A DNA stretch of 64,000 bases from Vicinamibacterales bacterium (GTDB lineage: Bacteria > Acidobacteriota > Vicinamibacteria > Vicinamibacterales > UBA2999): the NCBI GenBank assembly GCA_050250645.1, contig JBFWOG010000005.1, forward strand, positions 22,942 through 86,941, read 5' to 3'. The notes under the pieces are model-generated. The model did no database searches. It was not told the DNA's origin and saw nothing but the letters and a program-made list of their open reading frames with translations. Positions 2,362-62,206 of the stretch are shown piece after piece. Every line of letters starts with the position of its first letter. The stretch's first letter is position 1. The translations under genes and the position numbers were made by a program.

Positions 2362-2799
2362 ATGTCCGGACTGACTGCTGACGCCATTATCAAGCGCCTC
2401 GGCCTCCAGCCCCACCCCGAGGGCGGGCACTACGCGGAAACCTGGCGCGACCCCGCGCCCGCGGGCGGGCGCGCGCACTCGACCGGCATCTACTACCTGC
2501 TGCAGGGCGGCAACGGCTCGCGCTGGCACCGCGTGGACGCGGCCGAGATGTGGCACTACTACGCCGGCGCCCCGCTCGCCCTGCGCCTGTCGGCCGACGG
2601 CGCCGGCTGCGACACCCGGACGCTCGGCCTCGACTTCGAGGCTGGCGCGCGGCCCCAGATCGTCGTCCCCGCCGGGTGGTGGCAGTCGGCGCTCAGCCTC
2701 GGCGCGTGGACCCTCGTCGGCTGCACCGTCGCCCCGGGGTTCACGTTCGAGGGGTTCGAGATGGCCGAGGTGGGGTGGGAGCCACACGGAATCTTGTGA
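2362..2799 (+). CDS. Cupin-fold protein, DUF985-like
   Basis: ORF 2272..2799 trimmed to ATG 2362 (MSGLTADAIIKRLGLQPHPEGGHYAETW...YYLL...SRWHRV...EMWHYYAG). The stop TGA lies inside the first unit of the octamer array. Confidence 0.7.
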   Translation: MSGLTADAIIKRLGLQPHPEGGHYAETWRDPAPAGGRAHSTGIYYLLQGGNGSRWHRVDAAEMWHYYAGAPLALRLSADGAGCDTRTLGLDFEAGARPQIVVPAGWWQSALSLGAWTLVGCTVAPGFTFEGFEMAEVGWEPHGIL

Positions 2800-2870
2800 T
2801 CTGGTGATCTGGTGATCTGGTGATCTGGTGATCTGGTGATCTTGTGATCTTGTGATCTGGTGATTTGGCG
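2791..2870 (+). repeat. Tandem octamer array, (GTGATCTG/T) x8 plus one GTGATTTG variant
   Basis: Read directly: atctt gtgatctg x5, gtgatctt x2, gtgatctg, gtgatttg. Every full unit contains GATC and TGA. Confidence 0.95.
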
Positions 2871-3364: not shown

Positions 3365-4021
3365 ATGTCCGCTCCCTACTCGCGCCCGCTGCCCGAACCC
3401 GGCCAGGCCCTGCCCGGCCGTGACACCCCGATGCCCATTCCCGCGCGGCACGCCGTCACCGGGGGACCGCTCGTGCCAGACGAGACGGGCCTGGCGCACC
3501 TGGTCGTCGGCATGGGGTGCTTCTGGGGGGCGGAGCGGCTGTACTGGGAGACACCCGGCGTCGTCTCCACCGCGGTCGGCTACGCCGGCGGGACGACCCC
3601 GAACCCGACCTACGAGGAGACGTGCAGCGGCCTGACCGGACACACCGAGGTCGTGCGCGTCACCTACGACCCCTCCGTCGTCTCGCTCGAGTCGCTGCTG
3701 CGCATCTTCTGGGAAGGCCACGACCCGACGCAGGGCATGCGCCAGGGCAACGACATCGGCACGCAGTACCGCTCGGCGATCTTCGTGCCCGGCGCGGCGG
3801 AACTGGCCGTCGCCGAGGCCTCGCGGGCGCGGTACCAGGCGGAACTCACCGCCCACGGCTACGGCGCGATCACGACGGACATCGCCCTCGAGCCGCCCTT
3901 CTACTTCGCGGAGGGCTACCACCAGCAGTACCTCCACAAGAACCCCAACGGCTACTGCGGGCACGGCGGCACCGGGGTGAGCTGCCCGGTGGGGCTTACG
4001 GAAGTAAGAAGTAAGATCTAA
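3365..4021 (+). CDS. msrA: Peptide-methionine (S)-S-oxide reductase
   Basis: GMGCFWGAE active-site motif, then [32 protein letters not shown]. The last codons (EVRSKI) are encoded by the AT-rich repeat. Confidence 0.9.
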
Positions 4022-4040
4022 GAAATAAGAAATACGAAGT
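4001..4040 (+). repeat. AT-rich imperfect octamer repeat (about AAGTAAGA x5)
   Basis: gaagtaag aagtaaga tctaagaa ataagaaa tacgaagt. A strikingly AT-rich patch in a high-GC context, between convergent msrA and the LOG-family gene. Confidence 0.8.
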
Positions 4041-4050
4041 TGGGGCGCGG

Positions 4051-4800
4051 CTAGTCGCCATTGCCGAGGGCCTGCTCGCCGAGCAGGCGCGACGGGCGGG
4101 GCTTGGGGCGGCGCTTCAGGCCGAAGCGCTTCACGGCGTGCTCCTCGATGTGGGCGATCGCCTCCGGGATCGAGTCGGTGACCAGCATCAGGTCGAGGTC
4201 GCGCGCGGAGATCGTGCCGGCCGTCAACATCTCGCCGAGCAGGTCCGTGAACGGCTTCCAGTAGTCGCGCCCCATCAGCACGACCGGGAACTGCTTGATC
4301 TTGCCGGTCTGGATGAGCGTGAGCGCCTCGCAGAGCTCGTCGAGCGTCCCCAGCCCGCCCGGCAGGACCACGAACGCGTACGAGTACTTGAACAGCAGCA
4401 CCTTGCGCACGAAGAAGTAGTGGCAGGTGACCCACCGGTGGAGGTACCGGTTGGGGAACTGCTCGTGGGGCAGCGTGATGTTGCACCCGACCGACCGCCC
4501 GCCGCTCTCGTACGCGCCGCGGTTCGCGGCCTCCATCACCCCGGGGCCGCCTCCCGTCATCACCGTGAACCCCGTGCGGGCCACGGCCGCGCCCACCTCG
4601 CGTCCGAGCTGGTAGTACGGGTGGTCGTCGGCGAAGCGCGCCGACCCGAAGACCGTGACGCACGGGCCGACGAAATGGAGGCCGCGGAAGCCGCGCAGGA
4701 AGTCGCGCCCCGCCCGGAGCAGGAGCGTCAGCTCCTGGAGTCGCGAGTGCGGGCCTTCGAGCAGGACGAGGTCGGAACTGTCGGGGGACTCCACCGCCAT
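4051..4800 (-). CDS. LOG family / TIGR00730 Rossmann-fold nucleotide-binding protein
   Basis: ORF 4051..6738 trimmed to ATG 4800 (MAVESPDSSDLVLL...). Motifs GGGPGVMEAANRGA and VLPGGLGTLDELCE. Confidence 0.85.
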   Translation of the reverse strand: MAVESPDSSDLVLLEGPHSRLQELTLLLRAGRDFLRGFRGLHFVGPCVTVFGSARFADDHPYYQLGREVGAAVARTGFTVMTGGGPGVMEAANRGAYESGGRSVGCNITLPHEQFPNRYLHRWVTCHYFFVRKVLLFKYSYAFVVLPGGLGTLDELCEALTLIQTGKIKQFPVVLMGRDYWKPFTDLLGEMLTAGTISARDLDLMLVTDSIPEAIAHIEEHAVKRFGLKRRPKPRPSRLLGEQALGNGD

Positions 4801-7116: not shown

Positions 7117-7923
7117 TCACGGCCCGAAGATCCGGCGGGCTGCCGCCAGCGCCCGTCCGAAGTACTCCGGCAGCGGCGCGCTCGTGCACCCGAGCTCGAG
7201 AATGATGGCGCCCGCGTAGCGGACCTCGCGCAGGGTGTGCGTGATCTCGCCCCAGTCGATCGTGCCGTCGCCCGGCGGCAGGTGGTCGTCGAACCGCCCG
7301 TGGTTGTCGGTCGCGTGCACGTGCGCGAGGCGCGGGCCGGCGACGCGCAGGCAGTCGTGCCAGACGTGGCCGAGCGTCGTGTGCCCGGTGTCCAGGCAGA
7401 CGGCGACCGACGGTGGCAGCGTGTCCAGCACGTAGGCGAACTCGTCGGGGTGACCGCCGATGAGGTGGGGCAGGGGCGTCTCGACGGTCAGCGTGAGCTC
7501 GTGGACGGCGAGGGCGCCGGCCAGCTCCTCGAGCGCGCTCCGGCAGTTGGCGAGGCGCCGCGGGACGTCCTGGCCCTCGCGGGGCACGTCGCTCGGGTGC
7601 ACGACGACGTAGCGGCCGCCGACCGTCTCGAGGGCCGTGGCGGCGGTCAGGATGGCGGCGATCGCGCCGCGGCGGTGGTGCGGGTTGTCCGCCGACAGGT
7701 CGAGCAGCCCCCCGAACGGCGCGTGAATCGATGCGGCTGCCATCCCGGCGTCGCGCAGCCGGTCGCGCACGGCGAGCGTCTGCGCGGGGTCCCACGGCGC
7801 GAAGTGCCGGGGCGGCGTCCCGATCTCGACGAGCGGGACGCCGGCCGCGGCGAGGGCGTCGAGCACCTCGAGGATCGGGCGTTCGACGCAGCCGCCCGTG
7901 GCGATCCCGATCGGCCAGCTCAT
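7117..7923 (-). CDS. Xylose-isomerase-like / AP-endonuclease-2 (endonuclease IV fold) TIM-barrel protein
   Basis: ORF 7117..8871 trimmed to ATG 7923 (MSWPIGIATGG...). Superfamily metal-ligand pattern SIHAPF, VVVHPS, TVETPL, CLDTGH, HVHATDNHGRFDDHLPPGDGTIDW, ILELG. The start overlaps the stop of the upstream gene by 4 nt. Confidence 0.75.
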   Translation of the reverse strand: MSWPIGIATGGCVERPILEVLDALAAAGVPLVEIGTPPRHFAPWDPAQTLAVRDRLRDAGMAAASIHAPFGGLLDLSADNPHHRRGAIAAILTAATALETVGGRYVVVHPSDVPREGQDVPRRLANCRSALEELAGALAVHELTLTVETPLPHLIGGHPDEFAYVLDTLPPSVAVCLDTGHTTLGHVWHDCLRVAGPRLAHVHATDNHGRFDDHLPPGDGTIDWGEITHTLREVRYAGAIILELGCTSAPLPEYFGRALAAARRIFGP

Positions 7924-21779: not shown

Positions 21780-22769
21780 TCAGGCTCCCGCCCCCTCGCG
21801 GCGGAAGACCGCGAGGTCGTAGCCCACCCACCCGTTGGCGAGGCACTCCTGGAGCGCGGCGCCCCCGAGCAGGTGCCCGAAGCGCGTGCCGGCCAGCGGC
21901 AGCCGGCCGAACAGGGCGACGAGAGCCGACACCACCCGGTCGCGCGGCCGCCCGAGCTCGAGCCACGGCGTCAGGTCCGTCGTCGACTCGCGGGCGAAGC
22001 CCGCGTGGCGGGCCAGCGCGTCGAGCTGCTCCCGGTCGACGAGCGTGTTGACCCGCCAGCCCGCGGCGAAGCGTTCGACCGCCCGCGCGGCGCGCGCCGT
22101 GCCCGCCGGCCGGCGCATGTCGTCGCAGATGACCAGGAGTCCACCCGGGCGCACCACCCGGGCGCACTCGGCCAGCAACGCCGCCGGATCGGGCCCATGG
22201 ACGAAGGACTCGATCGCGTACGCCAGGTCGACGGCCCCGATCGACGGCGGCAGCGCCGTGAAGTCTCCCTCGAGACAGGTCACGCGCTCGTCGAGCCCCG
22301 CAGCGTGGATGCGCTCCCGCGCCAGGCGCGCCTGCACGGGACTGAGGGTGAGGCCAGAAACGAACAGGGTGCCAGGGGTGCACTTCCAGGTGCCAGGGGT
22401 GCCAGGGGTGCCAGGGGTGCCAGGGGTGTCAGGGGTGTCAAAGGTGCTCTGCGTAGCCGACGAACCTGTCGAACCTGACGAACCCGTCGAACCCGTCGAA
22501 CCCGACGAACCCGACGAACCCGCAAGATAGACCATGCTCGCGCCCACGCCGCATCCTAGGTCCAGCAGGTGGTGGGGGCCGGGGCCCAGGGTGGGGAGGA
22601 GCGCGAGTATCTGGTCCTCCACGAAGTGGAAGGCCCCGGCGCGCGAGGTGATGCCGGGGCCCCACACGGCGCGGTGGATGGCGCCGCCGCCCTGCCCGAA
22701 TTGGACGAAGCCCGCGGTGCTGCGATCGTAGAAGCGGCGGACGTCGTCGGGCGCGAATCGCGGCGGCAT
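21780..22769 (-). CDS. Class I SAM-dependent methyltransferase carrying a repeat-encoded insertion
   Basis: ORF 21780..23066 trimmed to ATG 22769 (MPPRFAPDDVRRFYDRS...). Motif I is LLDLGCGVGAS. A roughly 45-aa low-complexity insert follows (SSGSSGSTGSTGSSGSTGSS...TPDTPGTPGTPGTPGT). The fold then resumes at LFVSGLTLS and VRPGGLLVICD. Confidence 0.75.
   Translation of the reverse strand: MPPRFAPDDVRRFYDRSTAGFVQFGQGGGAIHRAVWGPGITSRAGAFHFVEDQILALLPTLGPGPHHLLDLGCGVGASMVYLAGSSGSSGSTGSTGSSGSTGSSATQSTFDTPDTPGTPGTPGTPGTWKCTPGTLFVSGLTLSPVQARLARERIHAAGLDERVTCLEGDFTALPPSIGAVDLAYAIESFVHGPDPAALLAECARVVRPGGLLVICDDMRRPAGTARAARAVERFAAGWRVNTLVDREQLDALARHAGFARESTTDLTPWLELGRPRDRVVSALVALFGRLPLAGTRFGHLLGGAALQECLANGWVGYDLAVFRREGAGA
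22368..22446 (+). repeat. Tandem nonamer array (about GGTGCCAGG, roughly 8 units) inside the methyltransferase CDS
   Basis: ggtgccagg ggtgcactt ccaggtgcc aggggtgcc ... gtgtcaggg gtgtcaaag. Encodes TPGTPGTPG on the gene strand. Confidence 0.9.
22459..22521 (+). repeat. Tandem nonamer array (GWCGAACCY x7) inside the methyltransferase CDS
   Basis: gacgaacct gtcgaacct gacgaaccc gtcgaaccc gtcgaaccc gacgaaccc gacgaaccc. Same unit as the arrays at 39523 and 51404. Confidence 0.95.
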
Positions 22770-35556: not shown

Positions 35557-35632
35557 TGGAGCCGGCGGTCGGACTCGAACCGACGACCTGCTGATTACGA
35601 ATCAGCTGCTCTACCAACTGAGCTACGCCGGC
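35557..35632 (-). tRNA. tRNA-Thr (anticodon CGU)
   Basis: Minus strand reads GCCGGCGTAGCTCAGTTGGTAGAGCAGCTGATTCGTAATCAGCAGGTCGTCGGTTCGAGTCCGACCGCCGGCTCCA. It has a 7-bp acceptor stem, anticodon loop TTCGTAA, T-arm GTCGG-TTCGAGT-CCGAC, and an encoded CCA. Confidence 0.9.
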
Positions 35633-39510: not shown

Positions 39511-39522
39511 GGCCGCACACCA

Positions 39523-39642
39523 GACGAACCCGTCGAACCAGACGAACCCGTCGAACCTGACGAACCTGACGAACCTGTCGAACCTGACGAACCTGTCGAA
39601 CCCGACGAACCTGTCGAACCCGACGAACCCGACGAACCCGTC
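39523..39642 (+). repeat. Tandem nonamer array (GWCGAACCN, about 13 units), intergenic
   Basis: gacgaaccc gtcgaacca gacgaaccc gtcgaacct gacgaacct ... gacgaaccc. Fills the gap between two convergent stops (39510 and 39643). Confidence 0.95.
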
Positions 39643-40584: not shown

Positions 40585-43628
<3,044 letters not shown>

Positions 43629-50747: not shown

Positions 50748-52387
50748 GGGACCCGCCTCCCGCCGGCCATCCGCACCACCCGGTCCGCCGCGGCCAGGGT
50801 CGCCCGGCGGTGCGACACGAGCAGCACGGTCCGGCCCATGCGCGCCTCGGCGAGCCCCGCGACGACGGCGGCCTCGGTGTCGGCGTCGAGTTCCGAGGTC
50901 GGCTCGTCGAGCAGGAGCAGCGGCGCCGCCTTCAGGTAGGCGCGCGCCAGCGCCAGCCGCTGCGCTTCGCCGCCCGACAGGCCCGCCCCGAGCTCGCCCG
51001 TGCGGGTGGCCAGGCCGCGGGGAAGGCGGTCGACGACGCGGTCGAAGGCCGCCAGCCGCATGGCGCGACGCACTTCGGCCTCGGACGCCGCTGGCGCGCC
51101 GAGCCGCAGGTTGTCGAGAAGGGTGCCGTGGAAGAGATGGGGACGCTGCGGGGCCCAGCTCACCGCCGCCCGCCACGCGTCCGGCGTCCACGCGTCCAGC
51201 CGCACGCCGTCGACGAGCACCGCGCCGTCGGCCGGGTCGACGAAGCGCAGGAGCGCCGCGAGGAGCGTGCTCTTGCCCGCGCCGCTCGGTCCGTCGAGCC
51301 CGAGCAGTTCGCCTGCCGCGACCTCCATCGAGAATCCGGCGAGGGCCTGTCCCCGTCCCGCGCCGTAGTCGACGCGCACGTTGGTGAACGACAGGCGGGG
51401 GGGCTTCGTCAGGTTCGTCAGGTTCGTCAGGTTCGTCGGGTTCGTCGGGTTCGTCGGGTTCGACAGGTTCGACAGGTTCGTCCCCAGCGCGTCGTCGAGC
51501 GCCGCGAGCTGGCGTCCGGTCTCCTGTCCCGCGAGGCCGGCGTGGAACGACTGGCCGAGCGTCCGCAGCGGGCGGTAGAACTCGGGCGCGAGCAGCAGCA
51601 CGGCGAGTGCCTCGGGGAAGGCCACCCGGCCGTAGAGGAGCCGCAGGCCGATCTCCACCGCGACGATGGCCGTGCCCAGCGTGGCGAGCAGCTCGAGCAC
51701 CAGCGCCGACAGGAAGCCCACGCGCAGCACGTCCATCGTCAGCCGCCGGTAGCGCTCGGCCGTCTCGCCCAGGCGGACCGACTCCTCGGCGACGCGGCCG
51801 AACGCCTTGAGGGTGACCAGCCCCTGCACCGCATCGAGGAAGCGGGCGGTCAGGCGGGAGAGGTCGACCCACTGCGCGGCGGTCCGCTCCCGGGCGATGC
51901 CGCCGATGAGCCACATGAAGAGCGGGATGAGCGGGCCCGTGACGACGAGCACCGCGGCGGACAGGGGATCGATCGCGACGACCGCGGTGACGACGGCGAC
52001 GGGAACGAGCACCGCGAGCGCGCGATGCACCTGGTAGCGCGCCACGTAGGCGTCGAGGGCGTCGAGGCCGGCCGTCAGCGTCGAGGTCACCGAGCCGGCC
52101 GGCAGTTGCTCGAGGCGCCGCGGACCCGCGCCAAGGGCGCGGCGGGCATGGGCATCCCGGAGCCGGGCCTTGAGCCGGACGAGCGTCTGGCTGGCCGAGG
52201 TGTCCGAGGCCCAGCCGATCGAGGCGCGCGCCACCGCGAGGGCGGCGAGCCATGCGAGCCCCCCCGCGGCCGCGGCCACCGGGCCGCCGCTACCGAGCCC
52301 CGCCAGCACCCCCGCGAGGACGACGGCCTGGGGAATGACCAGCACGCCCGCCAGGGCGCCCAGGCAGATGGCGAGGGAAGGGGACAT
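50744..52387 (-). CDS. cydD: Thiol reductant ABC exporter subunit CydD, with a repeat-encoded linker
   Basis: 547 aa. TMD, then TNLSNLSNPTNPTNPTNLTNLTNLTK, then an NBD (GPSGAGKSTLL, LSGGEAQR, LLLDEP). Confidence 0.85.
   Translation of the reverse strand: MSPSLAICLGALAGVLVIPQAVVLAGVLAGLGSGGPVAAAAGGLAWLAALAVARASIGWASDTSASQTLVRLKARLRDAHARRALGAGPRRLEQLPAGSVTSTLTAGLDALDAYVARYQVHRALAVLVPVAVVTAVVAIDPLSAAVLVVTGPLIPLFMWLIGGIARERTAAQWVDLSRLTARFLDAVQGLVTLKAFGRVAEESVRLGETAERYRRLTMDVLRVGFLSALVLELLATLGTAIVAVEIGLRLLYGRVAFPEALAVLLLAPEFYRPLRTLGQSFHAGLAGQETGRQLAALDDALGTNLSNLSNPTNPTNPTNLTNLTNLTKPPRLSFTNVRVDYGAGRGQALAGFSMEVAAGELLGLDGPSGAGKSTLLAALLRFVDPADGAVLVDGVRLDAWTPDAWRAAVSWAPQRPHLFHGTLLDNLRLGAPAASEAEVRRAMRLAAFDRVVDRLPRGLATRTGELGAGLSGGEAQRLALARAYLKAAPLLLLDEPTSELDADTEAAVVAGLAEARMGRTVLLVSHRRATLAAADRVVRMAGGRRVP
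51404..51483 (+). repeat. Tandem nonamer array (RGGTTCGWC x9) inside cydD
   Basis: aggttcgtc x3, gggttcgtc x2, gggttcgac, aggttcgac x2, flanked by partial units. This is the reverse complement of the unit at 22459 and 39523. Confidence 0.95.
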
Positions 52388-52433
52388 CGGAATCCGGCAA
52401 TCTGCTGACGTGCTGATCTCGTGAGGTCGTGAT

Positions 52434-52595
52434 CTACCTGTGACTCCTCGCGATGATACGGACCATCTTGAGGTTGATCCACACGAACCGCCACATCTGC
52501 CACGGGATGAACGTGCGGAAGAACCGCGTGGCCGGGGTGGGCAGGGTCGCGTAGGCGTGCTCCACGGGGCGGACCGGGTCCGGAGGCGTGCTCAT
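52434..52595 (-). CDS. Small (53 aa) hypothetical protein coupled to the SQR-like gene
   Basis: Not in the track. My own translation is MSTPPDPVRPVEHAYATLPTPATRFFRTFIPWQMWRFVWINLKMVRIIARSHR, ending at TAG. The ATG is 4 nt after the SQR stop, with GGAG upstream. Confidence 0.45.
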   Translation of the reverse strand: MSTPPDPVRPVEHAYATLPTPATRFFRTFIPWQMWRFVWINLKMVRIIARSHR

Positions 52596-52599
52596 GGGA

Positions 52600-54054
52600 T
52601 CACTCCGGGATGAGGCTCCAGCCGGGGCGGAGCCGGGCCTTGTACAGGAACAGGTGGTGGAGGAGGATCTTGATCCAGTGGCCGGCGAGGCCGATCTCGC
52701 CGAAGGTGGCGTCGAGGTCGCGGCCGTACTCCGGGTACCGGTCGAAGTCCGGGACGATCGGGAAGACCGTCATGGCGGCGGCGGTGCCGCGGAAGGGGTT
52801 GGCGCCGGCGGAGGCGACGCAGGCGGCGCCCATCTCGGCCATCGACGCGGTGTGCGTGGGCGCGGGCGCGCCGCCCATCATGTCGGCGATGCTGTGCGCG
52901 ACGGCCTTGCCGATCATCGCCGAGGGCATGCCCGTGCGCGGCGGCGCCGGCGCGATCGGCGCGCCGCCCGGGGTCTTGCGGGGCTCCGAGATCGCGTGGG
53001 GCGGCGCGAAGGCGATGCCGCACGCGAAGAGCGAGCCGTATCGGGGCGACTGGTAGGTGCGCGGCCAGTCGCGGGCGGACCACTCGGCGAAGGGCCGCGC
53101 CGTGTAGTCCGCGTCGACGCGCATGAAGCCGTTCGGGGCGAAGACCTCCGGCGTGATGTCGGCGCCGCCCCGGTCCACGGCCGTCAGCCCGACCCCCGAG
53201 AAGGGCGGCAGCAGCATCGCGAAGTCGAACGGCGCCTCGCCGGCCTCGCCGTCCAGGGTCTCGTAGTGGCAGACGCCGGGCTCGACGCCGCGCACGTGCG
53301 CCCGCGTCGTCCAGGTCAGGCCGCGCTCGGCGAACAGCGACTCCGCGAAGATCTTGCTCGGCGTCACGTAGCCGCCGCGCTTCAGGTGCAGGCCGCCCAT
53401 GCCGAAGTCGCCGAGCTCGTACTCGTTCGAGATCCAGGCGATGTCGGCGAGGTGGCGGACCCCGCGCGCCCGGAGCTCGAACTCGAGGTTGACGATGTAC
53501 TCGAAGGCGGCGCCCTGGCACGTGCAGGCGCCGTGGCCCGTGCCGACGAGGAAGCGCTGGCGCTCGCCGGCCTGCATGCGGTCGACGGCGCGGCCGAGGG
53601 CGGCCGCCGTGTCGGCCGCGTGCGCCTCGGTGCACACCGAGAGGCTGTGCCCGGACGGGCCCAGCCCCGGCGTGGCGCCGAAGTTGAGCTTGGGGCCCGT
53701 CGCGTTGATCAGGAAGTCGTACTTGAGGGTCCCGACCTCGCCCTCGTGCCCGGGGCGCGTGGACTCGGTGACGACGTAGGGCGCCGGGTCGCCGGCGTCG
53801 CCCTCGGGGTGCAGGCGCACGGCGCGGGCCTGGTGGAACGCGATCCCCGCCCGCTCGTACACCGGCGCGAGGGGGAACGTGACCTGGCGCGGCGACATCA
53901 GGCCGACGCCCACCCAGATGTTGGAGGGAATCCAGTTGTAGTGCGGCTGCGGCGAGACGACGGCGACTTCGTCGGTGCGCGGCAGCCACTTGCGCAGGAA
54001 GGCGGCAGCGGTATGGCCGGACACCCCGGCCCCGAGGACGACGACGCGAGCCAT
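52600..54054 (-). CDS. sqr: Sulfide:quinone oxidoreductase-like FAD-dependent oxidoreductase
   Basis: VVVLGAGVSGHTAA (FAD), GHGACTCQGAAFEY (SQR-type Cys region) and FACGIAFAPP. 484 aa. Confidence 0.75.
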   Translation of the reverse strand: MARVVVLGAGVSGHTAAAFLRKWLPRTDEVAVVSPQPHYNWIPSNIWVGVGLMSPRQVTFPLAPVYERAGIAFHQARAVRLHPEGDAGDPAPYVVTESTRPGHEGEVGTLKYDFLINATGPKLNFGATPGLGPSGHSLSVCTEAHAADTAAALGRAVDRMQAGERQRFLVGTGHGACTCQGAAFEYIVNLEFELRARGVRHLADIAWISNEYELGDFGMGGLHLKRGGYVTPSKIFAESLFAERGLTWTTRAHVRGVEPGVCHYETLDGEAGEAPFDFAMLLPPFSGVGLTAVDRGGADITPEVFAPNGFMRVDADYTARPFAEWSARDWPRTYQSPRYGSLFACGIAFAPPHAISEPRKTPGGAPIAPAPPRTGMPSAMIGKAVAHSIADMMGGAPAPTHTASMAEMGAACVASAGANPFRGTAAAMTVFPIVPDFDRYPEYGRDLDATFGEIGLAGHWIKILLHHLFLYKARLRPGWSLIPE

Positions 54055-54220: not shown

Positions 54221-54260
54221 CAAATCACGAGATCACCAGATCACGAGATCACCAGATGTC
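54221..54260 (-). repeat. Tandem octamer array (GTGATCTS on the gene strand, about 5 units)
   Basis: Plus strand reads caaatcac gagatcac cagatcac gagatcac cagatgtc. On the minus strand the cydB stop TGA lies within the first, degenerate unit. Confidence 0.9.
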
Positions 54261-55275
54261 AGTATTCCAGGTGACTGCCGGCCGTGATCCGGCGCCGGAA
54301 CACCCAGTACGTCCAGCCCTGGTAGGCCAGGACGACGGGCACGAAGAGCCCGGCGACCACGGTCATCACCTTCAGGGTGTAGGGGGTGGACGACGCGTTG
54401 TAGATGGTGAGGCTCCACCCGGGGTCGAGGCTCGAGACCATCACCCGCGGGAAGAGCGCCATGAAGATCGTGATCGTCGACAGCACGATGCCGAGCGAGG
54501 TCATCGTGAACGCCCAGCCCATGCGGTCGTGGTGGACGAACCAGCCGGCCGCGAGCATCGCGCCGAGCGCCCCGAGCGGGATGATGCCGGGGTTGATCCC
54601 GAAGCGCTGGAAGGCGTCCGTCCAGACGTAGGTCAGGATGACGAAGACGTAGACGAAGAAGGTGGCGATCGGCCCGATGCGGCGCGCCGCGTGGCGCGCG
54701 CGCGTGCGGATCGGGTCGGTGCTCTTGAGGTTCAGGAAGATCGCCCCGTGCGTCATGAAGACGGTGAGCGAGGCGAGCCCCGTGAGCACGGCGTAGGGGT
54801 TGAGGAGGTTGAAGAACCCGCCGACGTACTGGTGGTCGCCGTCGATCGGCACGCCCTTCAGCATGTTGCCGAGCGCGACGCCCCAGAGCAGCGCGGGAAT
54901 CGCGCTGCCGGCGAAGATCAGCAGGTCGAAGGTGCGCCGCCAGGTGGGGTTCCGGTCCTTGCTGCGGAACTCGAAGGCGACGCCCCGCACGATCAGGGCG
55001 ACCAGCATGAGGAACAGCGCCAGGTAGAAGCCGCTGAAGAGCGTGGCGTACCACTCGGGGAAGGCCGCGAAGATGGCGCCGCCCGCCGTGAGCAGCCAGA
55101 CCTCGTTGCCGTCCCACACCGGGCCGATCGTGTTGATGATCCGGCGCCGCTCGTCGTCGGTCTGCCCGAGGAAGGGCAGCAGGATGCCGACGCCGTAGTC
55201 GAAGCCCTCGAGGACGAAGAAGCCGATGAAGAGCACGGCCACGAGCACGAACCAGAGCGTGTTCAGGTCGAACAT
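54259..55275 (-). CDS. cydB: Cytochrome bd ubiquinol oxidase subunit II
   Basis: MFDLNTLWFVLVAVLFIGFFVLEGFDYGVGILLPF...WDGNEVWLLTAGGA. 338 aa. Confidence 0.95.
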   Translation of the reverse strand: MFDLNTLWFVLVAVLFIGFFVLEGFDYGVGILLPFLGQTDDERRRIINTIGPVWDGNEVWLLTAGGAIFAAFPEWYATLFSGFYLALFLMLVALIVRGVAFEFRSKDRNPTWRRTFDLLIFAGSAIPALLWGVALGNMLKGVPIDGDHQYVGGFFNLLNPYAVLTGLASLTVFMTHGAIFLNLKSTDPIRTRARHAARRIGPIATFFVYVFVILTYVWTDAFQRFGINPGIIPLGALGAMLAAGWFVHHDRMGWAFTMTSLGIVLSTITIFMALFPRVMVSSLDPGWSLTIYNASSTPYTLKVMTVVAGLFVPVVLAYQGWTYWVFRRRITAGSHLEY

Positions 55276-56860: not shown

Positions 56861-57469
56861 ATGGACGTCGTGCGCACCCCCATCGTCGGCTGGATCGAGG
56901 TCGTCGTCGGCAGCATGTTCAGCGGGAAGAGCGAGGAGCTCATCCGTCGCCTGCGGCGGGCGCAGATCGCCCGGCAGCGGGTGCAGATCTTCAAGCCGGC
57001 GGTGGACACCCGCTTCGGGGAAGACCACATCGTGTCGCACAGCGAGCTGCGCATCCCGTCCACGCCGGTCGGGTCGGCGGCGGAACTCGAGGCGGCGGTG
57101 CTGCCCGACACGGAAGTGGTGGGGATCGACGAGGGGCAGTTCTTCGACCAGGACCTGCCCGGCGTCTGCGCGGCCCTGGCGGCCCGCGGGGTGCGCGTCA
57201 TCGTGGCGGGGCTGGACCAGGACTACCTGGGGAAGCCCTTCGAGCCGATGCCGCAGCTGCTCGCCATTGCCGAGTACATCACCAAGACCCGGGCGATCTG
57301 CATGGTCTGCGGGAACCCGGCGAACCACACCCAGCGCCTCGTGGCGAGCAGCGACCGGGTGCTGCTCGGGGCGCAGGGGACGTACGAAGCCCGGTGCCGG
57401 CGGTGCTTCGACCCGGCGCTCGGCCAGCGCGCCGAGGCGGTGGACCAGGCGCCGCAGCGGGCCGGGTGA
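56861..57469 (+). CDS. tdk: Thymidine kinase
   Basis: P-loop [22 protein letters not shown], and Zn Cys pairs CMVCG...CRRC. Confidence 0.9.
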
Positions 57470-58038
57470 TGTCAGATCTCGGCGCGCTGCTGCCGCAGGT
57501 CCTCTTCGCGCTCGGCGCGGGATTCCTCGTCGCGAACCTGCTGGTCGCGAAGGACCTGCTGCGGTGGGCCCGCCGGCGGGCCACGGCGGTGCTGGTCTGG
57601 CCGGCGCCGAAGCCCCCCTACTACGGCCTGAGCCTCGCCATCGGGGTGATGCTCGGGTTGCTCATCCTCTTCAAGGCGATCATCCAGCTGCGGCCGCCCA
57701 CCTCGCTCTTCGGGGAGGTGATGATGTTCGTCTACTACGGCTACGCGCTGCCGCTCTCGACCCGCGTCGGCCGGGGGCTGTACGCGGACGGCATCTGGAC
57801 GGACGGCGGCTTCATGCCCTACACGGAGATCGGGGGCCTCAGCTGGCGGGACGAACCCGACCCGACGCTGGTGCTCATCGCCCGCCGCCGCCCCGTGGCG
57901 CGCCGCCTGCGGGTGCCGGGCACGCGCCTCGGCGAGGTGCGCCGCCTGCTCCGCGAAAAGATCTCGAGCCACGACATCGAGTTCGACGGCGGCCCGGGCA
58001 TCCACCTGGGGGAGCGGGATACCAGGGAAAGTGTGTAG
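57469..58038 (+). CDS. Hypothetical membrane protein
   Basis: The tail of ORF 57394..58038 from ATG 57469, which overlaps the tdk TGA by 1 nt. Three hydrophobic helices followed by a soluble tail. Confidence 0.6.
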   Translation: MSDLGALLPQVLFALGAGFLVANLLVAKDLLRWARRRATAVLVWPAPKPPYYGLSLAIGVMLGLLILFKAIIQLRPPTSLFGEVMMFVYYGYALPLSTRVGRGLYADGIWTDGGFMPYTEIGGLSWRDEPDPTLVLIARRRPVARRLRVPGTRLGEVRRLLREKISSHDIEFDGGPGIHLGERDTRESV

Positions 58039-58040
58039 AT

Positions 58041-58176
58041 GAGATTTGGTGATCTCGTGATCTCGTGATCTCGTGATTTGGGATCTTGTGATCTTGTGAT
58101 CTTGTGATTTGCGATCTGGGAATCGCAGCGAACGTCAATCGTCAATCTGCAATCTTCAATCTGCAATCTTCGTGAT
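58041..58176 (+). repeat. Compound tandem octamer array (about 17 units; GTGATCTY-type then CAATCTK-type)
   Basis: gagatttg gtgatctc x3 gtgatttg ggatcttg tgatcttg x2 tgatttgc gatctggg aatcgcag cgaacgtc aatcgtca atctgcaa tcttcaat ctgcaatc ttcgtgat. Begins 3 nt after the stop at 58038 and ends about 45 nt before the ku RBS. Confidence 0.95.
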
Positions 58177-58229
58177 GCGGTCTATTGGGCCGGGCGGTGC
58201 TGTCCGATAGATCGATGACTGGAGGCCTC

Positions 58230-59120
58230 ATGGCTGCGCGACCGACCTGGAAGGGCTACATCAAGGTCAGCCTCGTCACGATTCCGATACGGGTGTATCC
58301 GGCGACGGAGTCGGCGGCCACGATCTCGTTCAACCAGCTCCACGCCGAGTGCCAGACGCGGATCCAGCAGAAGAAGTGGTGCCCGAAGTGCGAGCGCGAG
58401 ATCACCTCGGCCGAGGTGGTCAAGGGCTACGAGTTCGAGAAGGGCCGCTGGGTCGTCGTGAACGAGGAGGACATCGCGAAGGTCCGCGCGGAGTCCACGA
58501 AGGTCATCAACCTGGTGCAGTTCACCGAGGTGGACGCGATCGACCCGATGTACGTCGACAAGGCGTACTACCTGGCGCCCGAGGGGCCGATGGCGGCCGA
58601 CGCGTACGCCGTCATGCGCGAGGGCATGCAGGGCAAGGCGGGCATCGGCAAGCTGGCCATCCACGGCCGCGAGTACCTCGTGGCGGTGAAGCCGCACAAG
58701 CAGGGCCTCGTGATGTACACGCTGCACCACGCCGCCGAGATCCGGACGATCGACCAGATCGACGAGCTGCGCGAGGTGCGCGGCTCGGTGAACCCGGCGG
58801 AGATGAAGCTGGCCCGCCAGGTCATCGAGAGCTACGAGGGCGAGCTCAACCTGGCCGACTACAAGGACGAGTACCAGGCCGGCCTGCGCCAGATCATCGA
58901 CGCCAAGGTCGCGGGCGAGGAGATCGTCGCGCCCGCCGAGGCCGAGCCGCCGAAGGTCGTCGACCTGATGGAAGCCCTGCGCCGGAGCCTCGACCAGGTC
59001 AGCGCGGGCAAGAAGAAGACCGCCAAGGTCGAGGAGCCCGCCGAGGCCAAGGGGAAGCGCGCCTCGTCGAAGACCGCCGCCGCGAAGGGCGCCGGCGGCC
59101 GCAAGCGCAAGGCGTCCTGA
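58230..59120 (+). CDS. ku: Ku protein (bacterial NHEJ DNA-end binding)
   Basis: GGAGG at 58221, then ATG 58230. MAARPTWKGYIKVSLVTIPIRVYPATE...ISFNQLH...VKGYEFEKGRWV...YYLAPE, plus a Lys-rich tail. Confidence 0.9.
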   Translation: MAARPTWKGYIKVSLVTIPIRVYPATESAATISFNQLHAECQTRIQQKKWCPKCEREITSAEVVKGYEFEKGRWVVVNEEDIAKVRAESTKVINLVQFTEVDAIDPMYVDKAYYLAPEGPMAADAYAVMREGMQGKAGIGKLAIHGREYLVAVKPHKQGLVMYTLHHAAEIRTIDQIDELREVRGSVNPAEMKLARQVIESYEGELNLADYKDEYQAGLRQIIDAKVAGEEIVAPAEAEPPKVVDLMEALRRSLDQVSAGKKKTAKVEEPAEAKGKRASSKTAAAKGAGGRKRKAS

Positions 59121-59195
59121 CGTCGCGGAGTGACCGCTGGGGCTCGGCCCGATTCAACGCTGCTTGGCCCAACAGCCGCCTAAGGTACAAGCCGA

Positions 59196-59789
59196 CTAGG
59201 GCCTGCTGGCCATCTGTCGTGCCCGGTATGAGTCAACGCGGCGTTCAACCCGGTCAAGAATCGCCGTGCGGCCCGATTGCTCCAGGCCGACCATGGCCCC
59301 AACCGACGGGCTTGAAGGGGTGAATAGGTCGGGTTGCTTCGTCTTGTACCAGACAAGGCGATGTTCCGCGCACATTAGCTCAACGTGCTCTTCCCTCAAG
59401 ATAGCGGCAGCTTCATCAGCGAAATCAGCGTCGTGCCCTCTATAGACAGAAACATGCGGTTCGAATCCGTATCGTTCGATGGGGAAGGACTTCTTCCACC
59501 AAACTTCCCGAAGGTGAGGGCTGTCCACGCGGAAGAACACGACTTCTTCGCCCGGATTGGAGAAGCGTCCAACGCCAGCGATCCTGAGGACGTCGTACTT
59601 GAGCTTGGCTCGTGCGTCTTCCAGGACCTTGCGAGGGCTGTCGCCTTCGTACGGTCCTCTAAGCGTGACGTGGATTGGTCCTTTGCCGTAATGGCCCGTA
59701 AGAATGTGTCGGACTCTCCACAAGAACGCATTGACCACAGGGTCGGTGAGCTCGAGTAGCAGGAAGTGCACAGCCATGGTGGCGCCCAT
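59196..59789 (-). CDS. 2H phosphoesterase superfamily protein (LigT / cyclic phosphodiesterase-like)
   Basis: Two H-x-T/S-x motifs: GPIHVTLRG and FEPHVSVYRG, about 75 aa apart. Visibly lower GC than the surrounding sequence. The ATG abuts the stop of the upstream reading frame (TAGATG). Confidence 0.6.
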   Translation of the reverse strand: MGATMAVHFLLLELTDPVVNAFLWRVRHILTGHYGKGPIHVTLRGPYEGDSPRKVLEDARAKLKYDVLRIAGVGRFSNPGEEVVFFRVDSPHLREVWWKKSFPIERYGFEPHVSVYRGHDADFADEAAAILREEHVELMCAEHRLVWYKTKQPDLFTPSSPSVGAMVGLEQSGRTAILDRVERRVDSYRARQMASRP

Positions 59790-60172
59790 CTAAAGAACCA
59801 GGTAGCGACGCAGCTCCGGTGCGATCCTTTCGTGGGTCAGCGCCGAGTAGAGAAAGGCTGACAGTGTCTCTGCGTGCTTTCGAACTATGTCCTTGCGCGT
59901 GCCCCCCTCCAGATATTCCTCGACGTTCTCTTCCTCTTTCCATCGCAGGAATTCTTCGTACAAGTCGAGAATTTGTGGCCACTGCCTGAGTATCGAGGCG
60001 TCTGCCAACAGATCCAGGGCGGACGCCAGTCGCTCAAGTGGCGGGCGACTGCAGAGTGCGACCATTGCGTCGGGTGTGTCGATTGGCTCAAGTATGACAG
60101 GTAGGACCGTGCTGAAGACCGTGACCATACGGCTAAACTTGAGATTAACGTTCTTCTTACGCCAAGGCTTAG
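59790..60172 (-). pseudogene. 3-prime fragment of an IS-disrupted nucleotidyltransferase gene
   Basis: Track ORF 59790..60128 (MVTVFSTVLPV...). The frame stays open upstream to the IS boundary and joins in frame with fragment 61497..62206 once the IS and one TSD copy are removed. Confidence 0.7.
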
Positions 60173-61496
60173 TACTACTTTGTCACCTTCGCAGCGGGGC
60201 GTTGCGGCGGAAGCTGTCGAGCATGCCGAGTAGTCGCTGGTTGTGAATGACGTAGAGCAGGCCGAAGATCTCGCGGACCCAGCCGCGCACCACGGGCAAC
60301 GTGGGGCGTGGCGTGTCGTCCCCGCGTCGGCCACGCTCGATCTGGAGGAAGGTGAAGGCCACGGCGGTGAGCACGACGTGGTGAGTCCAGCCGCGGTACG
60401 AGCGTCCCTCGAAGTGGTCGAGGCCGAGGTCATCCTTGAGTTCGCGATACTGCTGCTCGATCGGCCAGCGACTGCGCGCGAGCGTCACGAGGTCGTGCAG
60501 CGTCGCCGTCGGCGGCACATGCAGCAGGTAGTACTTGTGCACATCGGCCGGCGAGCGCTCGCAGAGCAACCAGCGATCGCCGCGCCCCTCGACCGGTCGG
60601 ACGCGGAGCGCACAGAACCGAGCCCCGATCGGCTGCGCCGGATCGGCGCCCCACGTCACGGTCTCCCACGCGCCCGCCGGCGCCGAGGCCGCCAGATCGG
60701 CGGCACTGACCGGCCCGCCCTCCACGTCGACCACCGTGAAGACGAGATCGCCACGAATCGCCACGCCATACGCAAGCCCGAGGCGCTCCAGGCCCTCACG
60801 AAACGCCGCGTTGCGCCCGTAGTCCGCATCGACCACGACGCCGGTGATCGTGAAGCCGGCCTTCAGAATGGTGCGCACCTGGGCCAGGGCGATCTTCCAC
60901 TTCTCGCGAAAGACCACGGTGTCCGGCAGGCCCACCCGCGCGCGCCGATCGGCATCGTCGGTCCACAACGCGGGCAGATACAGGTCGAACGCGAGGGGCC
61001 ACGTGCGACCGTCGGCGATCAGCGCACTCGACACCGCCACCTGGCAGTTGCCGACCTTGCCCAGCGCGCCACAATACTGGCGCTGCACGCCCACCGAATC
61101 CGTCCCCTGCTTGGGGAAGCCCGTGTCGTCGATGGCGAGAATGCCGGCGCGCACCGGGACGGCGGCCCGCAGCTGCGTCCACACGCGCTCGGCCTCCCAG
61201 GGCGAGTCCGTGATGAAGTGCTGCAGCGCTTGGTACTGACCGGGATCACTCAACCGGCCATGCATTGCCTGCATCGACTTCCGCTCGCTGTCGTTCAACA
61301 GGCCGTCGAGGTAGCGACTCGCTGCCTCGCGTTGCGGGCGGCGACTGAAGCACGCGCTGAAGCCGTCGAGGAACCGGCCAAGGCGCTGGAGCAGCGCCCG
61401 TGCAGGCGTCGTCTTCACCCGCGCAGCGTATCGAACCGCGCACGCGAGTACAAGAGGAAACCGTCAGCTCACGCCGACGAAACTGACAAAGTAGTA
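60173..61496 (-). mobile_element. IS701-family-like insertion sequence (1324 bp) with a 4-bp TSD
   Basis: Terminal inverted repeats are TACTACTTTGTCA at 60173..60185 and its reverse complement at 61484..61496, with partial matches further in. Flanking direct repeat TTAG at 60169..60172 and 61497..61500. Single DDE transposase ORF. GC is higher than the flanking island. Confidence 0.85.
60183..61418 (-). CDS. IS701-family DDE transposase
   Basis: 411 aa. RYLDGLL...ERKS, ILAIDDTGFPKQG..SVGVQRQYCGALGKVGNCQV, VVVDADYG, and RWPIEQQYRELKDDLGLDHFEGRSYRGWTHH. Confidence 0.85.
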   Translation of the reverse strand: MKTTPARALLQRLGRFLDGFSACFSRRPQREAASRYLDGLLNDSERKSMQAMHGRLSDPGQYQALQHFITDSPWEAERVWTQLRAAVPVRAGILAIDDTGFPKQGTDSVGVQRQYCGALGKVGNCQVAVSSALIADGRTWPLAFDLYLPALWTDDADRRARVGLPDTVVFREKWKIALAQVRTILKAGFTITGVVVDADYGRNAAFREGLERLGLAYGVAIRGDLVFTVVDVEGGPVSAADLAASAPAGAWETVTWGADPAQPIGARFCALRVRPVEGRGDRWLLCERSPADVHKYYLLHVPPTATLHDLVTLARSRWPIEQQYRELKDDLGLDHFEGRSYRGWTHHVVLTAVAFTFLQIERGRRGDDTPRPTLPVVRGWVREIFGLLYVIHNQRLLGMLDSFRRNAPLRR

Positions 61497-62206
61497 TTAG
61501 TGCGGTCGTGGCGGCGTTCTTCGTAGTTGAGGCAGAGGGTGCGCCAGTATCGAAGAAGATCATTCAGCAGGAACAAAGGTCGGAAGGACTTCTTGCTGCG
61601 ATTGTCTCGGTAGTAATTGTCGGCGACGAGGCGAAGCTGAACGGCAAATCGCTCGGGGTTGAGAAGGGGGGCGCTCTCAAGGACCATCAGCAGTCGAGTG
61701 GTGAACAGGTTGTCGCTGTCGTCGCGAGCCGAGCCTGTTGCTTCAATGAGATCTTTGATTGGGCAGATCTTCAGGAATTGACCGTCGTTGCTGAATTCCG
61801 GAAATCCGAGCGACGAGTTAAGCTGAATTAGCTCAGCGAAGAGCGTGTACTCGCGTAGGCGGCTTGTGTGTGAACGTGCCTCCTCTGATACGACGAATAT
61901 GTCTAGGTCTGAGTGTTCGCCGGCCTCTTGTCGAGCCAACGACCCCGCGCAAAAAATGGAGATCGGCATCGACGAAGCGAGCGTCGTCGTCGCAAGGGCC
62001 GCGGACACCCGCTCCACCTGTTTGGCGGACTCTGAACGGCGTCTCGCAAGGGACTCGTGCTTCGCCAACATCTCTAGGCAGCTGCTCACTAATACCTCGA
62101 AATCAGAGCTTGCCACAGGTCCAACGGCGGCGTCAGCCATTATCGGTTTGGTTGCCGCCGTTCGCTGTCTCTCTTGCGCAGAATGGGCGTTGGCGTACGC
62201 CGGCAT
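61497..62206 (-). pseudogene. 5-prime fragment of an IS-disrupted Pol-beta-superfamily nucleotidyltransferase gene
   Basis: FCAGSLARQEAGEHSDLDIFVV (GS...DxD NTase motif). The last 10 codons and the stop of track ORF 61469..62413 come from the IS end. Start is ATG 62140 (MADAAV) or 62206 (MPAYAN). Confidence 0.7.

Follow-up and report, generated by a model that had tools for sequence, protein, structure and literature searches.

The closest described counterparts of the repeats reported here are the GGGAATC heptamers of Xanthomonas and the GGGGA(C/T)T heptamers of Nostoc/Anabaena, ~90% of which are intergenic, at a mean distance of 28 nt from the upstream open reading frame (ORF) and far nearer to it than to the downstream one (Rehm et al. 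2015, PMC4692102). These heptamer arrays are strongly biased towards positions adjoining or overlapping the stop codon, the coding strand being the G-rich one. They occur as inverted tandem pairs, are under-represented between divergent genes, and accompany genes of all functional classes; most of them are transcribed, Xcc and Xac differ in their lengths, and no function is known for them (PMC4692102). As Mrazek et al. 2007 is quoted in later papers, they constitute one class of long simple sequence repeats with units of 5 to 11 nt (PMC4692102, PMC4679880). Here, we describe an array of GTGATCTN octamers that lies between the stop codon of a gene for a 189-aa protein and the start of ku in a 64,000-nt stretch of DNA from a Vicinamibacterales bacterium (hereafter the window; GC content ~73%). 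The array is real and striking, yet it is ordinary for its lineage, as it is almost certainly one copy of a dispersed, lineage-wide family whose members are placed and oriented with respect to stop codons in a manner that chance does not produce.

The GTGATCTN arrays have the properties of long simple sequence repeats, in that a tandem unit of 5 to 11 nt recurs beyond chance and is dispersed, intergenic, stop-proximal, G-rich in the sense strand, and variable in length between relatives. Their closest known analogues are the Xanthomonas and Nostoc heptamers, with which they share dispersed and largely intergenic arrays, proximity to the upstream ORF, a G-rich sense strand, inverted pairs, under-representation between divergent genes, and an association with genes of all functional classes, and the present arrays add an octamer and an Acidobacteriota host to this known class. 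They differ from the heptamers in having an 8-nt unit that contains a GATC palindrome and TGA, in lacking G-tracts and hence any G-quadruplex potential, in showing no preference for four units (the median is 5, with a range of 3 to 13.6), and in residing in an Acidobacteriota order outside those surveys. The TAACTGA heptamers of marine Beggiatoaceae, Cyanobacteria, and Bacteroidetes, for which post-transcriptional action has been proposed (MacGregor 2015, PMC4679880), likewise supply stops in all three frames in the forward orientation, are intergenic, sometimes run over the upstream stop, and are patchily distributed across phyla. However, TAACTGA sets of 2 to 6 copies mostly lie no more than a few nucleotides upstream of start codons, often in place of a ribosome-binding site (PMC4679880), whereas GTGATCTN arrays of 3 to 13.6 copies start at stops, end 40 to 270 nt before the next start, and are not start-proximal. 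In Geobacter metallireducens, paired sites of the form GTTGCTYN x4 and MTYCTGA x5 have been read as DNA binding sites of global regulators (Aklujkar et al. 2009, PMC2700814); these also comprise four to five tandem 7- to 8-nt units at dozens of loci, mostly as opposite-strand pairs at variable distance, but their unit sequences differ, and their placement relative to stops is not reported there (PMC2700814). No mention of the octamer sequence or of tandem repeats in Vicinamibacteria was found in the searchable literature. An earlier reading of the window from its sequence alone (the sequence-only reading) knew of no described function for the repeat, which is correct, although the literature does contain repeats of closely similar kinds (PMC4692102, PMC4679880, PMC2700814).

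The octamer array in the ku spacer and its sister arrays

The region between the 189-aa gene and ku is laid out as follows.

57469..58038, + strand: upstream gene, a conserved 189-aa hypothetical membrane protein (called on a near-identical contig and by the codon model)
58041..58118, + strand: octamer array GTGATCTN, ten units in two blocks (Tandem Repeats Finder and unit-by-unit reading)
58119..58135, + strand: non-repeat 17-nt spacer GGAATCGCAGCGAACGT, which separates the two arrays (unit-by-unit reading)
58136..58170, + strand: heptamer array CAATCKN, five units, G-free or G-poor and devoid of sense stop triplets (Tandem Repeats Finder and unit reading)
58171..58229, + strand: unique 59-nt sequence with the ku ribosome-binding site GGAGG at 58221-58225 (sequence reading)
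58230..59120, + strand: ku gene, 296 aa, PF02735, with its ATG at 58230 (Pfam and gene call on the near-identical contig)

The near-identical contig is JBFWWR010000053.1 at NCBI (GCA_050246075.1), which matches the window without gaps at 99.97% identity and on which thymidine kinase, the 189-aa protein, and Ku are called. The start of the 189-aa gene overlaps the stop of the thymidine kinase gene, and its product has 896 homologues, mostly in Vicinamibacterales, and no Pfam match. Only two bases (AT) separate its TAG stop codon (58036-58038) from the first octamer at 58041. The octamer array is made up of eight units of 8 nt and two of 7 nt, with block 1 reading GAGATTTG, GTGATCTC three times, and GTGATTTG, and block 2 reading GGATCTT (7 nt, at 58081), GTGATCTT twice, GTGATTTG, and CGATCTG (7 nt, at 58112). 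Tandem Repeats Finder reports a period of 8 with 8.9 copies, 87% matches, and 6% indels for this part, and a period of 7 with 5.3 copies for the heptamers, which run CAATCGT/CAATCTG/CAATCTT/CAATCTG/CAATCTT. Together, the two arrays occupy the first ~135 nt of the 191-nt spacer before ku, the heptamers ending 59 nt and the octamers 111 nt from the ku ATG.

The feature is, then, two adjacent slipped-strand microsatellites, an octamer followed by a heptamer. That a highly non-random tandem array exists at this place, as the sequence-only reading had claimed, is borne out by the 21 matches in the window to the pattern GTGATCTNGTGATCT with up to two mismatches, where 0.16 are expected. The strict 8-bp periodicity over ~136 bp with ~17 units that it described is replaced by octamers with two 7-nt phase slips, a 17-nt spacer, and heptamers; the CAATCTG and CAATCTT units that it saw in the second half are present, although with a period of 7 rather than 8 and in five copies, and the array ends not shortly before the ku ribosome-binding site but ~50 nt from GGAGG. 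Its account of TGA in all three frames of the sense strand and of an open antisense strand with spurious ITRSQDH-type ORFs is true of the octamer part, in which the antisense strand is stop-free.

The remainder of the spacer shows no sign of a device dedicated to the regulation of ku. There is no sigma-70 promoter consensus in the ku spacer and no intrinsic terminator (GC-rich hairpin followed by a U-tract) at any site in 57300-59400. At the gathering score, Rfam 15 gave no match to the arrays, and its sole match in the window is a tRNA gene at 35560-35632 (- strand). The contiguous 7- to 8-nt units also bear no resemblance to a CRISPR array, with its 24- to 48-nt repeats and unique spacers.

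The window contains 3-4 loci of the GTGATCTN type, and those other than the ku spacer are the following.

2791..2868, + strand: sister GTGATCTN array, 9.8 copies (Tandem Repeats Finder, Pfam of neighbours)
54221..54257, - strand: sister GTGATCTN array, 4 units with a CATCTG lead-in (Tandem Repeats Finder, Pfam of neighbours)
52396..52433, + strand: decayed GTGATCTN-like units, the distal antisense arm of an inverted pair (comparison with the related locus L081)

The first two lie between co-directional genes in the sense orientation, as had been noted from the sequence. The TGA of a Cupin_5 gene (2797-2799) falls within the first unit of the 2791-2868 array, which is followed by a DUF2177 gene (2915-3313), and the 54221-54257 array begins directly behind the TGA of cydB (54259-55275, - strand) and has a positional orthologue of 5 units in L081. 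The third had been taken for a degenerate trace of the same kind at about 52405-52440; decayed units do exist there, but they are antisense and form the distal arm of a pair, the full form of which is kept in L081, behind an unannotated 53-aa ORF. Every intergenic GTGATCT in the window belongs to an array, and there are no single-copy intergenic seeds. The 53-aa ORF itself (MSTPPDPV...WRFVWINLKMVRIIARSHR*, 52434-52595, - strand) is conserved in L081 and has no Pfam match; it starts 4 nt after the stop of a flavin adenine dinucleotide (FAD)-dependent oxidoreductase gene, and its own TAG is followed by the decayed repeat trace.

Placement and orientation of the family at stop codons

When 185,579 species genomes were searched for three tandem copies of GTGATCTN, at least 103 loci matched the pattern. 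Among the matches listed, 58 are in Acidobacteriota, mostly in metagenome-assembled genomes (MAGs) of Vicinamibacterales, with at least 17 loci in JBFWVR, at least 12 in CAWJEO, and at least 8 in CAWJVW, and the closest relative is the MAG 'Vicinamibacterales bacterium CA_2019_TPBF_99'; the other matches listed are spread among Bacteroidota, Chloroflexota, Proteobacteria, Terriglobia, and further groups. The analysis of placement covers 84 arrays of at least 3 units from the 58 listed Acidobacteriota loci, mostly from MAGs, and the window. Genes were called with a purpose-written codon log-odds caller that recovered 50 of 54 independently annotated stops and made no extra calls. The free position N of the units is G in 68% and C in 16%, and only 3 of the 84 arrays lie inside a called gene.

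It is clear from these arrays that placement and orientation follow the upstream gene. A stop codon on the same strand lies within 30 nt upstream of the array start in 42 of 84 cases, compared to 5 cases of antisense abutment (binomial p = 2.5e-8), and the stop-to-array distances cluster at 5, 6, and 7 nt. When each array was given a random position and orientation inside its own intergenic region, 4.8 ± 2.0 arrays were expected within 10 nt of a same-strand stop (5000 trials, maximum 13), as opposed to the 30 observed. The claim that the arrays occupy junctions after stops in the sense orientation therefore extends to the family, and the random placement and orientation that the sequence-only reading had named as the outcome that would speak against it is not what the 58 listed loci and the window display. 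The construction of the arrays is polar, consisting of the stop, then ATCTN-(GTG-ATCTN)n-GTG-ATTTG, with no more than 2 nt between the stop and the first core; at the junctions, the stop is followed by ATCTG, GATTTG, AATCTG, or CATCTG and then by full units, and the arrays tend to close with GTGATTTG, GTGATTT being found in 28% of last units and 8% of inner units. The stop codon itself was considered as a part of the element and rejected as such, since usage next to arrays (18 TGA, 18 TAG, and 6 TAA) does not differ from that of other genes (p = 0.31). The stop is mostly out of phase with the TGAs of the units.

The gene downstream of an array is either co-directional or convergent, and even in convergent intergenic regions, an array adjoins the gene whose sense strand it shares. 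Of 12 arrays at convergent gene ends, 6 have a hairpin with z < -2 no more than 70 nt further on, some of these hairpins being textbook bidirectional terminators, which suggests that the arrays are located in the transcribed 3' untranslated region (UTR). Close inverted pairs are convergent without exception (12 of 12 with a '+' array followed by a '-' array, p = 5e-4); the long hairpins that they form have folding energies of -53 to -128 kcal/mol, and in the pair at L069, the unit variants have the same order in both arms. In the other phyla, GTGATCTN arrays abut the stop of a same-strand ORF in 14 cases and that of an antisense ORF in 2, by the crude criterion of ORFs of at least 100 aa. At the opposite end, only 1 of the 84 arrays stops within 30 nt upstream of a same-strand start. 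An apparent class of 11 antisense arrays abutting start codons was discarded as partly artefactual, because antisense arrays are stop-free and starts are over-extended through them, and at least one of these cases proved to be the other half of an inverted pair that follows a small ORF overlooked in the gene calls. Replication strand as the cause of the orientation was likewise rejected, as arrays on both strands follow their genes within a uniform cumulative GC skew. Since orientation tracks the adjacent gene on either DNA strand, it would appear that the arrays act, or have been filtered, at the level of RNA, and among the roles proposed from the sequence alone, that of an intercistronic RNA element is the one best compatible with the orientation rule.

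The same geometry is found for other units. The genomes that harbor GTGATCTN arrays also contain many other period 7-9 arrays, among them those of CAATCTN, GAAGTAA, CCNGACGAA, CGAAGGGCA, TCTGTGCCA, GAACCTCT, CCCAAGT, and GGGTCCT, and these families likewise begin at or over stops and likewise occur as inverted pairs. A handful of unit families per genome, dispersed as intergenic tandem repeats, is also the pattern of the short tandemly repeated repetitive (STRR) heptamers of heterocystous cyanobacteria. At loci that were not selected for repeats, L116 carries (GGGTCCT)5 and inverted (CAAGACC)12 at 5250-5375 as a hairpin directly from the efp stop, L109 carries (CCCCAAT)6 over a stop at 4575-4617, the reverse complement of the Nostoc GGGGATT unit, and L115 carries GATTGCA x3.7 and GCCGACA x10.4 directly at the ku stop (7745-7847). 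One related locus carries (GGGGATT)n, the unit described in Nostoc. Variant units GGTGATCG and GGTGATCC are present, also as inverted pairs, at L018, L058, and L040 (Terriglobia, Ca. Angelobacter, Ca. Acidiferrales).

The properties held in common were sought in the stop-abutting arrays of period 7-8, which comprise 43 of the GATC family and 13 of other families. The sense strand contains more G than C in 35 of the 39 informative GATC-family arrays and in 11 of 12 of the others. General G-over-C composition of 3' UTRs was rejected as the cause, given that array-free 3' flanks are evenly divided (96 versus 87 genes). Stop triplets behave differently, being found in the sense strand of 39 of 43 GATC-family arrays, compared to 7 in antisense, but in the 13 other-family arrays in 4 sense and 3 antisense cases, without bias, and the stop-abutting units AGAGGTTC, CAAGGTTC, ACTTGGG, GCGGAGGC, and GGGTCCT have no sense-strand stops at all. 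The common denominator of the families is neither stop triplets nor GATC.

This distribution bears on the idea that the arrays are fail-safe stops in three frames, which would curb the output of read-through and frameshifting, given the rarity of out-of-frame stops at 73% GC. Three successive GTGATCTN units bring TGA into each frame of the sense strand but into none of the antisense strand, the arrays are sense and start at the stop codon, the lead-ins of 5-7 nt place an in-frame TGA 2-8 codons past the primary stop, and the sense bias of stop triplets in the GATC family is pronounced. This part of the sequence-only reading therefore holds for GTGATCTN itself, but it cannot be generalized to the other families with their unbiased triplets. 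Moreover, three units would suffice for such a purpose, yet the arrays have up to 13.6 with a median of 5, the heptamer half of the ku-spacer array lacks sense stops, and the majority of genes have no array. We consider a fail-safe function highly improbable.

Turnover at the ku locus and the origin of the arrays

The order efp / thymidine kinase / 189-aa gene / ku / CDP-alcohol phosphatidyltransferase is conserved among related genomes, and the orthologous loci, listed here with the identity of the 189-aa protein to that of the window, differ in what precedes ku.

Window: reference; spacer of 191 nt, 8-9 octamers and 5 heptamers
L081: 83%; TAG ATTTG and 4 octamers
L107: 80%; degenerate GTGATCTN, then CCGTGTCT and GTTTCCGT octamers
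L105/L106: 77%; 172-nt spacer, no array
L108: 70%; 25-nt spacer, empty site
L109/L110: 69%; GMGACACA x3.9
L115: 68%; 13.6 GTGATCTG units
L116: 68%; GCTGACA x5.3 and a single CAATCTG right after the stop
L117: 66%; CCAGAGC x2.9

A GTGATCTN array of 4 to 13.6 units precedes ku at 4 of 9 distinct orthologous loci, the CAATCTN heptamers are absent from the closest orthologue, L081, and the distance from the stop to ku ranges from 25 to 285 nt. The last residue of the 189-aa protein is the same in all orthologues, array-bearing or array-free, which indicates that the array was added behind a pre-existing stop; an array-created stop with truncation of the C-terminus was rejected for this locus, as array-free orthologues end at the same residue. 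The ku spacer has thus been colonised repeatedly by different 7-8-mers in different lineages. In the 8 kb over which L081 is syntenic with the window, each of the three arrays keeps its position but not its copy number (8-9 versus 4 units; 4 versus 5; the trace versus 5 and an inverted arm). The family gains and loses units over evolutionary time and is not specific to ku. The variability in unit number that the sequence-only reading had proposed to look for is therefore found between relatives (8-9, 4, 13.6, and degenerate), but not between two assemblies of the organism, the arrays of which are identical, and no strain variants of the ku array emerged from metagenome scans for its unique 5' junction and for a degenerate pattern at the ku start.

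This history may simply be the result of replication slippage on 7-9-nt units, with the arrays being non-functional, hypermutable repeats that persist where they do the least harm. The rules of orientation and position would then be by-products of purifying selection, for instance against C-rich RNA that loads Rho or against disruption of reading frames. Many unrelated period 7-9 families are found in each genome and, across lineages, at the one ku spacer; period-9 arrays lie in frame in genes while nearly all of those with a period of 7 or 8 are intergenic, which is what a selection filter would produce; relatives drift apart in copy number, arrays decay (L107 and 52396-52433 of the window), and some ku orthologues have no array and a 25-nt spacer. 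Polymerase slippage is also the published view of long-unit repeats (PMC4679880, PMC4692102, citing Mrazek 2007). However, random seeds fail to explain why one octamer recurs at 17 or more loci in a genome and in several phyla, and slippage leaves unexplained the fixed phase and polarity of the array ends and the start 0-2 nt after a native stop. In addition, arrays in convergent regions abut their sense gene, which a filter for operon polarity would not require, and the window contains no single-copy intergenic GTGATCT from which arrays could have been seeded. For these reasons, we regard slippage without function as the main rival to a functional reading, to be taken seriously but on the unlikely side.

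A different origin would be a non-autonomous mobile element of the foldback or REPIN type, inserted in fixed orientation at an AT-rich stop sequence, of which single arrays would be decayed halves. REP elements are imperfect palindromes of 20-40 nt mobilised by RAYT transposases, and REP, BIME, and REPIN elements, in work attributed to Liang, Rudd and Deutscher (2015) and to Bertels and Rainey (2011), reportedly affect mRNA stability, termination, and upstream translation. Such elements are extragenic, are transcribed in 3' UTRs and intercistronic spacers, often no more than ~15 nt from a stop, and occur as hairpin-forming inverted doublets, with single copies as their remnants. The present arrays are comparable in placement, and their inverted pairs fold at -53 to -128 kcal/mol, but they consist of tandem 8-mers, and a single array has little self-structure (z = -1.28). 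Mobility would account for the dispersal of one unit over many loci and phyla, for defined 5' and 3' ends, for 12 inverted pairs in a single relative orientation with a shared variant order in the arms of L069, and for the arm that has decayed at 52396-52433 but is retained in L081. It would also fit the FAD oxidoreductase insertion relative to L115, which is flanked by arrays. At that site, the gap between cydB and cydD is only 65 nt in L115 (2640-2704), whereas the window (52434-54054) and L081 hold the FAD-dependent oxidoreductase and the small ORF between cydB and cydDC; the segment is bracketed by the 54221 array and the decayed arm, with the array 3' ends facing the insert. Against mobility, there is no target-site duplication or fixed target, with junctions varying among TGA|, TAG|, TGAA|, and TAGC|, and no associated transposase was identified, the only one in the 64-kb window being DDE_5. 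Whole-unit changes in situ and the single-unit seed at an orthologous site fit local slippage instead, and insertion boundaries cannot be drawn from a comparison of filled with empty orthologous sites, given how far these have diverged downstream. Viral contigs contain no related arrays, the pattern scan of them having given 4 irrelevant low-GC matches, and a phage origin finds no support there. A mobile element seems to us very unlikely.

Two further roles had been proposed at the level of DNA, a platform with GATC every 8 bp for a methylation-sensitive or nucleoid protein, and a phase-variable spacer, or contingency locus, for the expression of ku. Each octamer contains GATC, the distance between the stop and ku varies between relatives, and the annotators of Geobacter read similar paired sites as binding sites of global regulators (PMC2700814). 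The contingency loci of Haemophilus and Neisseria are similarly built of slippage-prone repeats, the unit number of which can alter the spacing of expression signals. These loci, however, have units of 1-7 nt in the promoters or 5' coding regions of surface or restriction-modification genes of host-adapted pathogens, whereas the GTGATCTN arrays lie behind the stops of housekeeping genes in a soil lineage, and those of the window are identical in two assemblies. The orientation of the arrays follows the gene strand, with both strands represented in one replication arm, which points to RNA and away from duplex DNA. The frequency of GATC outside the arrays is ordinary (observed/expected 0.89), showing neither the avoidance nor the enrichment that restriction or Dam biology might leave, intergenic regions are not enriched in it, and sister families with the same placement have no GATC. 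There is no promoter consensus, the genes that the arrays follow are of every kind, and spacers of anything from 25 to 285 nt are tolerated by orthologues. Neither the methylation platform nor the control of ku promoter or UTR spacing is supported by these data, and we hold both to be extremely improbable.

The window contains further short-period repeats with units other than GTGATCTN. A GAAGTAA heptamer array (4001-4040, 5.7 copies, ~29% GC in a 73% GC genome) overlaps the stop of msrA (3365-4021), and an ACCYGACGA nonamer array (39519-39640, 13.6 copies) takes up nearly all of the space between two convergent stops, at 39510 (+ strand, pyridine nucleotide-disulphide oxidoreductase) and 39643 (- strand, 61-aa ORF). 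Period-9 arrays lie in frame in UvrA (41230-41313, SSV repeats) and in a CydD-like ABC transporter (51405-51482, NLT/NPT repeats between the membrane and ATPase domains), and two adjoining ones lie in a SAM methyltransferase (22367-22522), between motif I and the remaining Methyltransf_11 domain. Copies of the unit CCNGACGAA are found at 22457, 39519, and 51405, in opposite reading orientations in its two carrier genes. Downstream of ku, an island of lower GC content (~59200-62200, 0.62-0.64) contains a 2'-5' RNA ligase-like gene, a DDE_5 transposase gene (60183-61418), and an NTP_transf_2 gene. It resembles a recent insertion, since a CDP-alcohol phosphatidyltransferase gene stands directly after ku at L105, L109, and L115-L117.

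A candidate role at the RNA level and its implications

Given the evidence presented here that placement and orientation obey the transcribed strand, the reading that we favor is that the octamer arrays act as an orientation-dependent element at the level of RNA, although we regard the prospects of this reading as evenly balanced. We infer that transcription runs through the arrays, which lie ahead of the terminator or the following cistron and would belong to the 3' UTR or to intercistronic RNA. As such, an array would be a G/U-rich, C-poor, and largely unstructured spacer, the effect of which would depend on its orientation. It may stop ribosomes that overrun the stop codon, in any frame, it may retain post-termination 30S subunits through its GGUGAUCU units, which are complementary to the 3' tail of 16S rRNA, and its C-poor transcript would offer no loading site for Rho. 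Where an array is accompanied by its inverted copy, the two may form a hairpin of 30-60 bp that serves as a 3'-end or processing structure.

A more specific version of this RNA-level reading invokes the 3' tail of 16S rRNA, which we take to be the conserved GGAUCACC. With G at its free position, the unit becomes GGUGAUCU, the dominant form in Vicinamibacterales, whose 8 nt are complementary to this tail with one G·U pair, and the predicted duplex of (GUGAUCUG)n with the tail has an energy of -12.9 kcal/mol, in the top 0.9% of all octamers. Predicted pairing to this anti-Shine-Dalgarno tail is stronger in the sense than in the antisense orientation in 39 of 43 stop-abutting GATC-family arrays and in 12 of 13 of other families. 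Each array could accordingly be viewed as a row of Shine-Dalgarno-like sites that would capture and hold post-termination 30S subunits, each site also being fused to a potential GUG...UGA minicistron (GUG AUC UNG UGA). The variant GGTGATCC mentioned above is the exact complement of GGAUCACC. We consider the specific idea of anti-Shine-Dalgarno pairing unlikely.

Several observations weigh against these proposals. The 16S tail used here is the generally conserved sequence rather than that of this genome, and the 16S 3' end was not present in the related loci analysed. The units of the ku array, with C or T at the free position, rank only in the top 8-9% of octamers for pairing with the tail, and the adjoining heptamers, GAAGTAA, CCNGACGAA, and GCTGACA have no complementarity to it. 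A Shine-Dalgarno-like site downstream of a stop also cannot pair with a ribosome that is still on that stop. With respect to orientation, single arrays between co-directional genes are antisense in 13 cases and sense in 24 (p = 0.1), and the sample of loci is biased, as these were selected by the octamer pattern in 8-kb tiles from at least 103 loci. The fold of the ku-spacer RNA is not unusual (z = -1.28 in sense and -0.81 in antisense), and the arrays of the window have an unchanged copy number in the two assemblies of the organism.

Tandem families with units of 5 to 11 nt were catalogued between 1990 and 2007 in cyanobacteria, Xanthomonas, Burkholderia, Geobacter, and Beggiatoa, none with an assigned function, and the abundant soil lineage Vicinamibacterales is now added to the hosts of such repeats. 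For annotation, the arrays are a source of spurious antisense ORFs and of in-frame low-complexity inserts in MAGs of 70% GC or more. The results presented here also sharpen the rule that any explanation has to accommodate, namely, a start at a native stop and a G-rich sense strand, whichever gene follows, across unit families and phyla, and this geometry points to a role at the RNA level or linked to translation termination. G-rich, C-poor tandem 7-8-mers at stops might even form a single cross-phylum 3'-UTR class that acts on the translation or transcription machinery as it leaves the ORF, a proposal to which we attach little probability. Under it, the C-rich antisense RNA would be an ideal Rho loading site, so that the arrays would serve as directional insulators; if it were true, it would provide a function for the heptamer and octamer repeats of Xanthomonas, Nostoc, Geobacter, and other bacteria.

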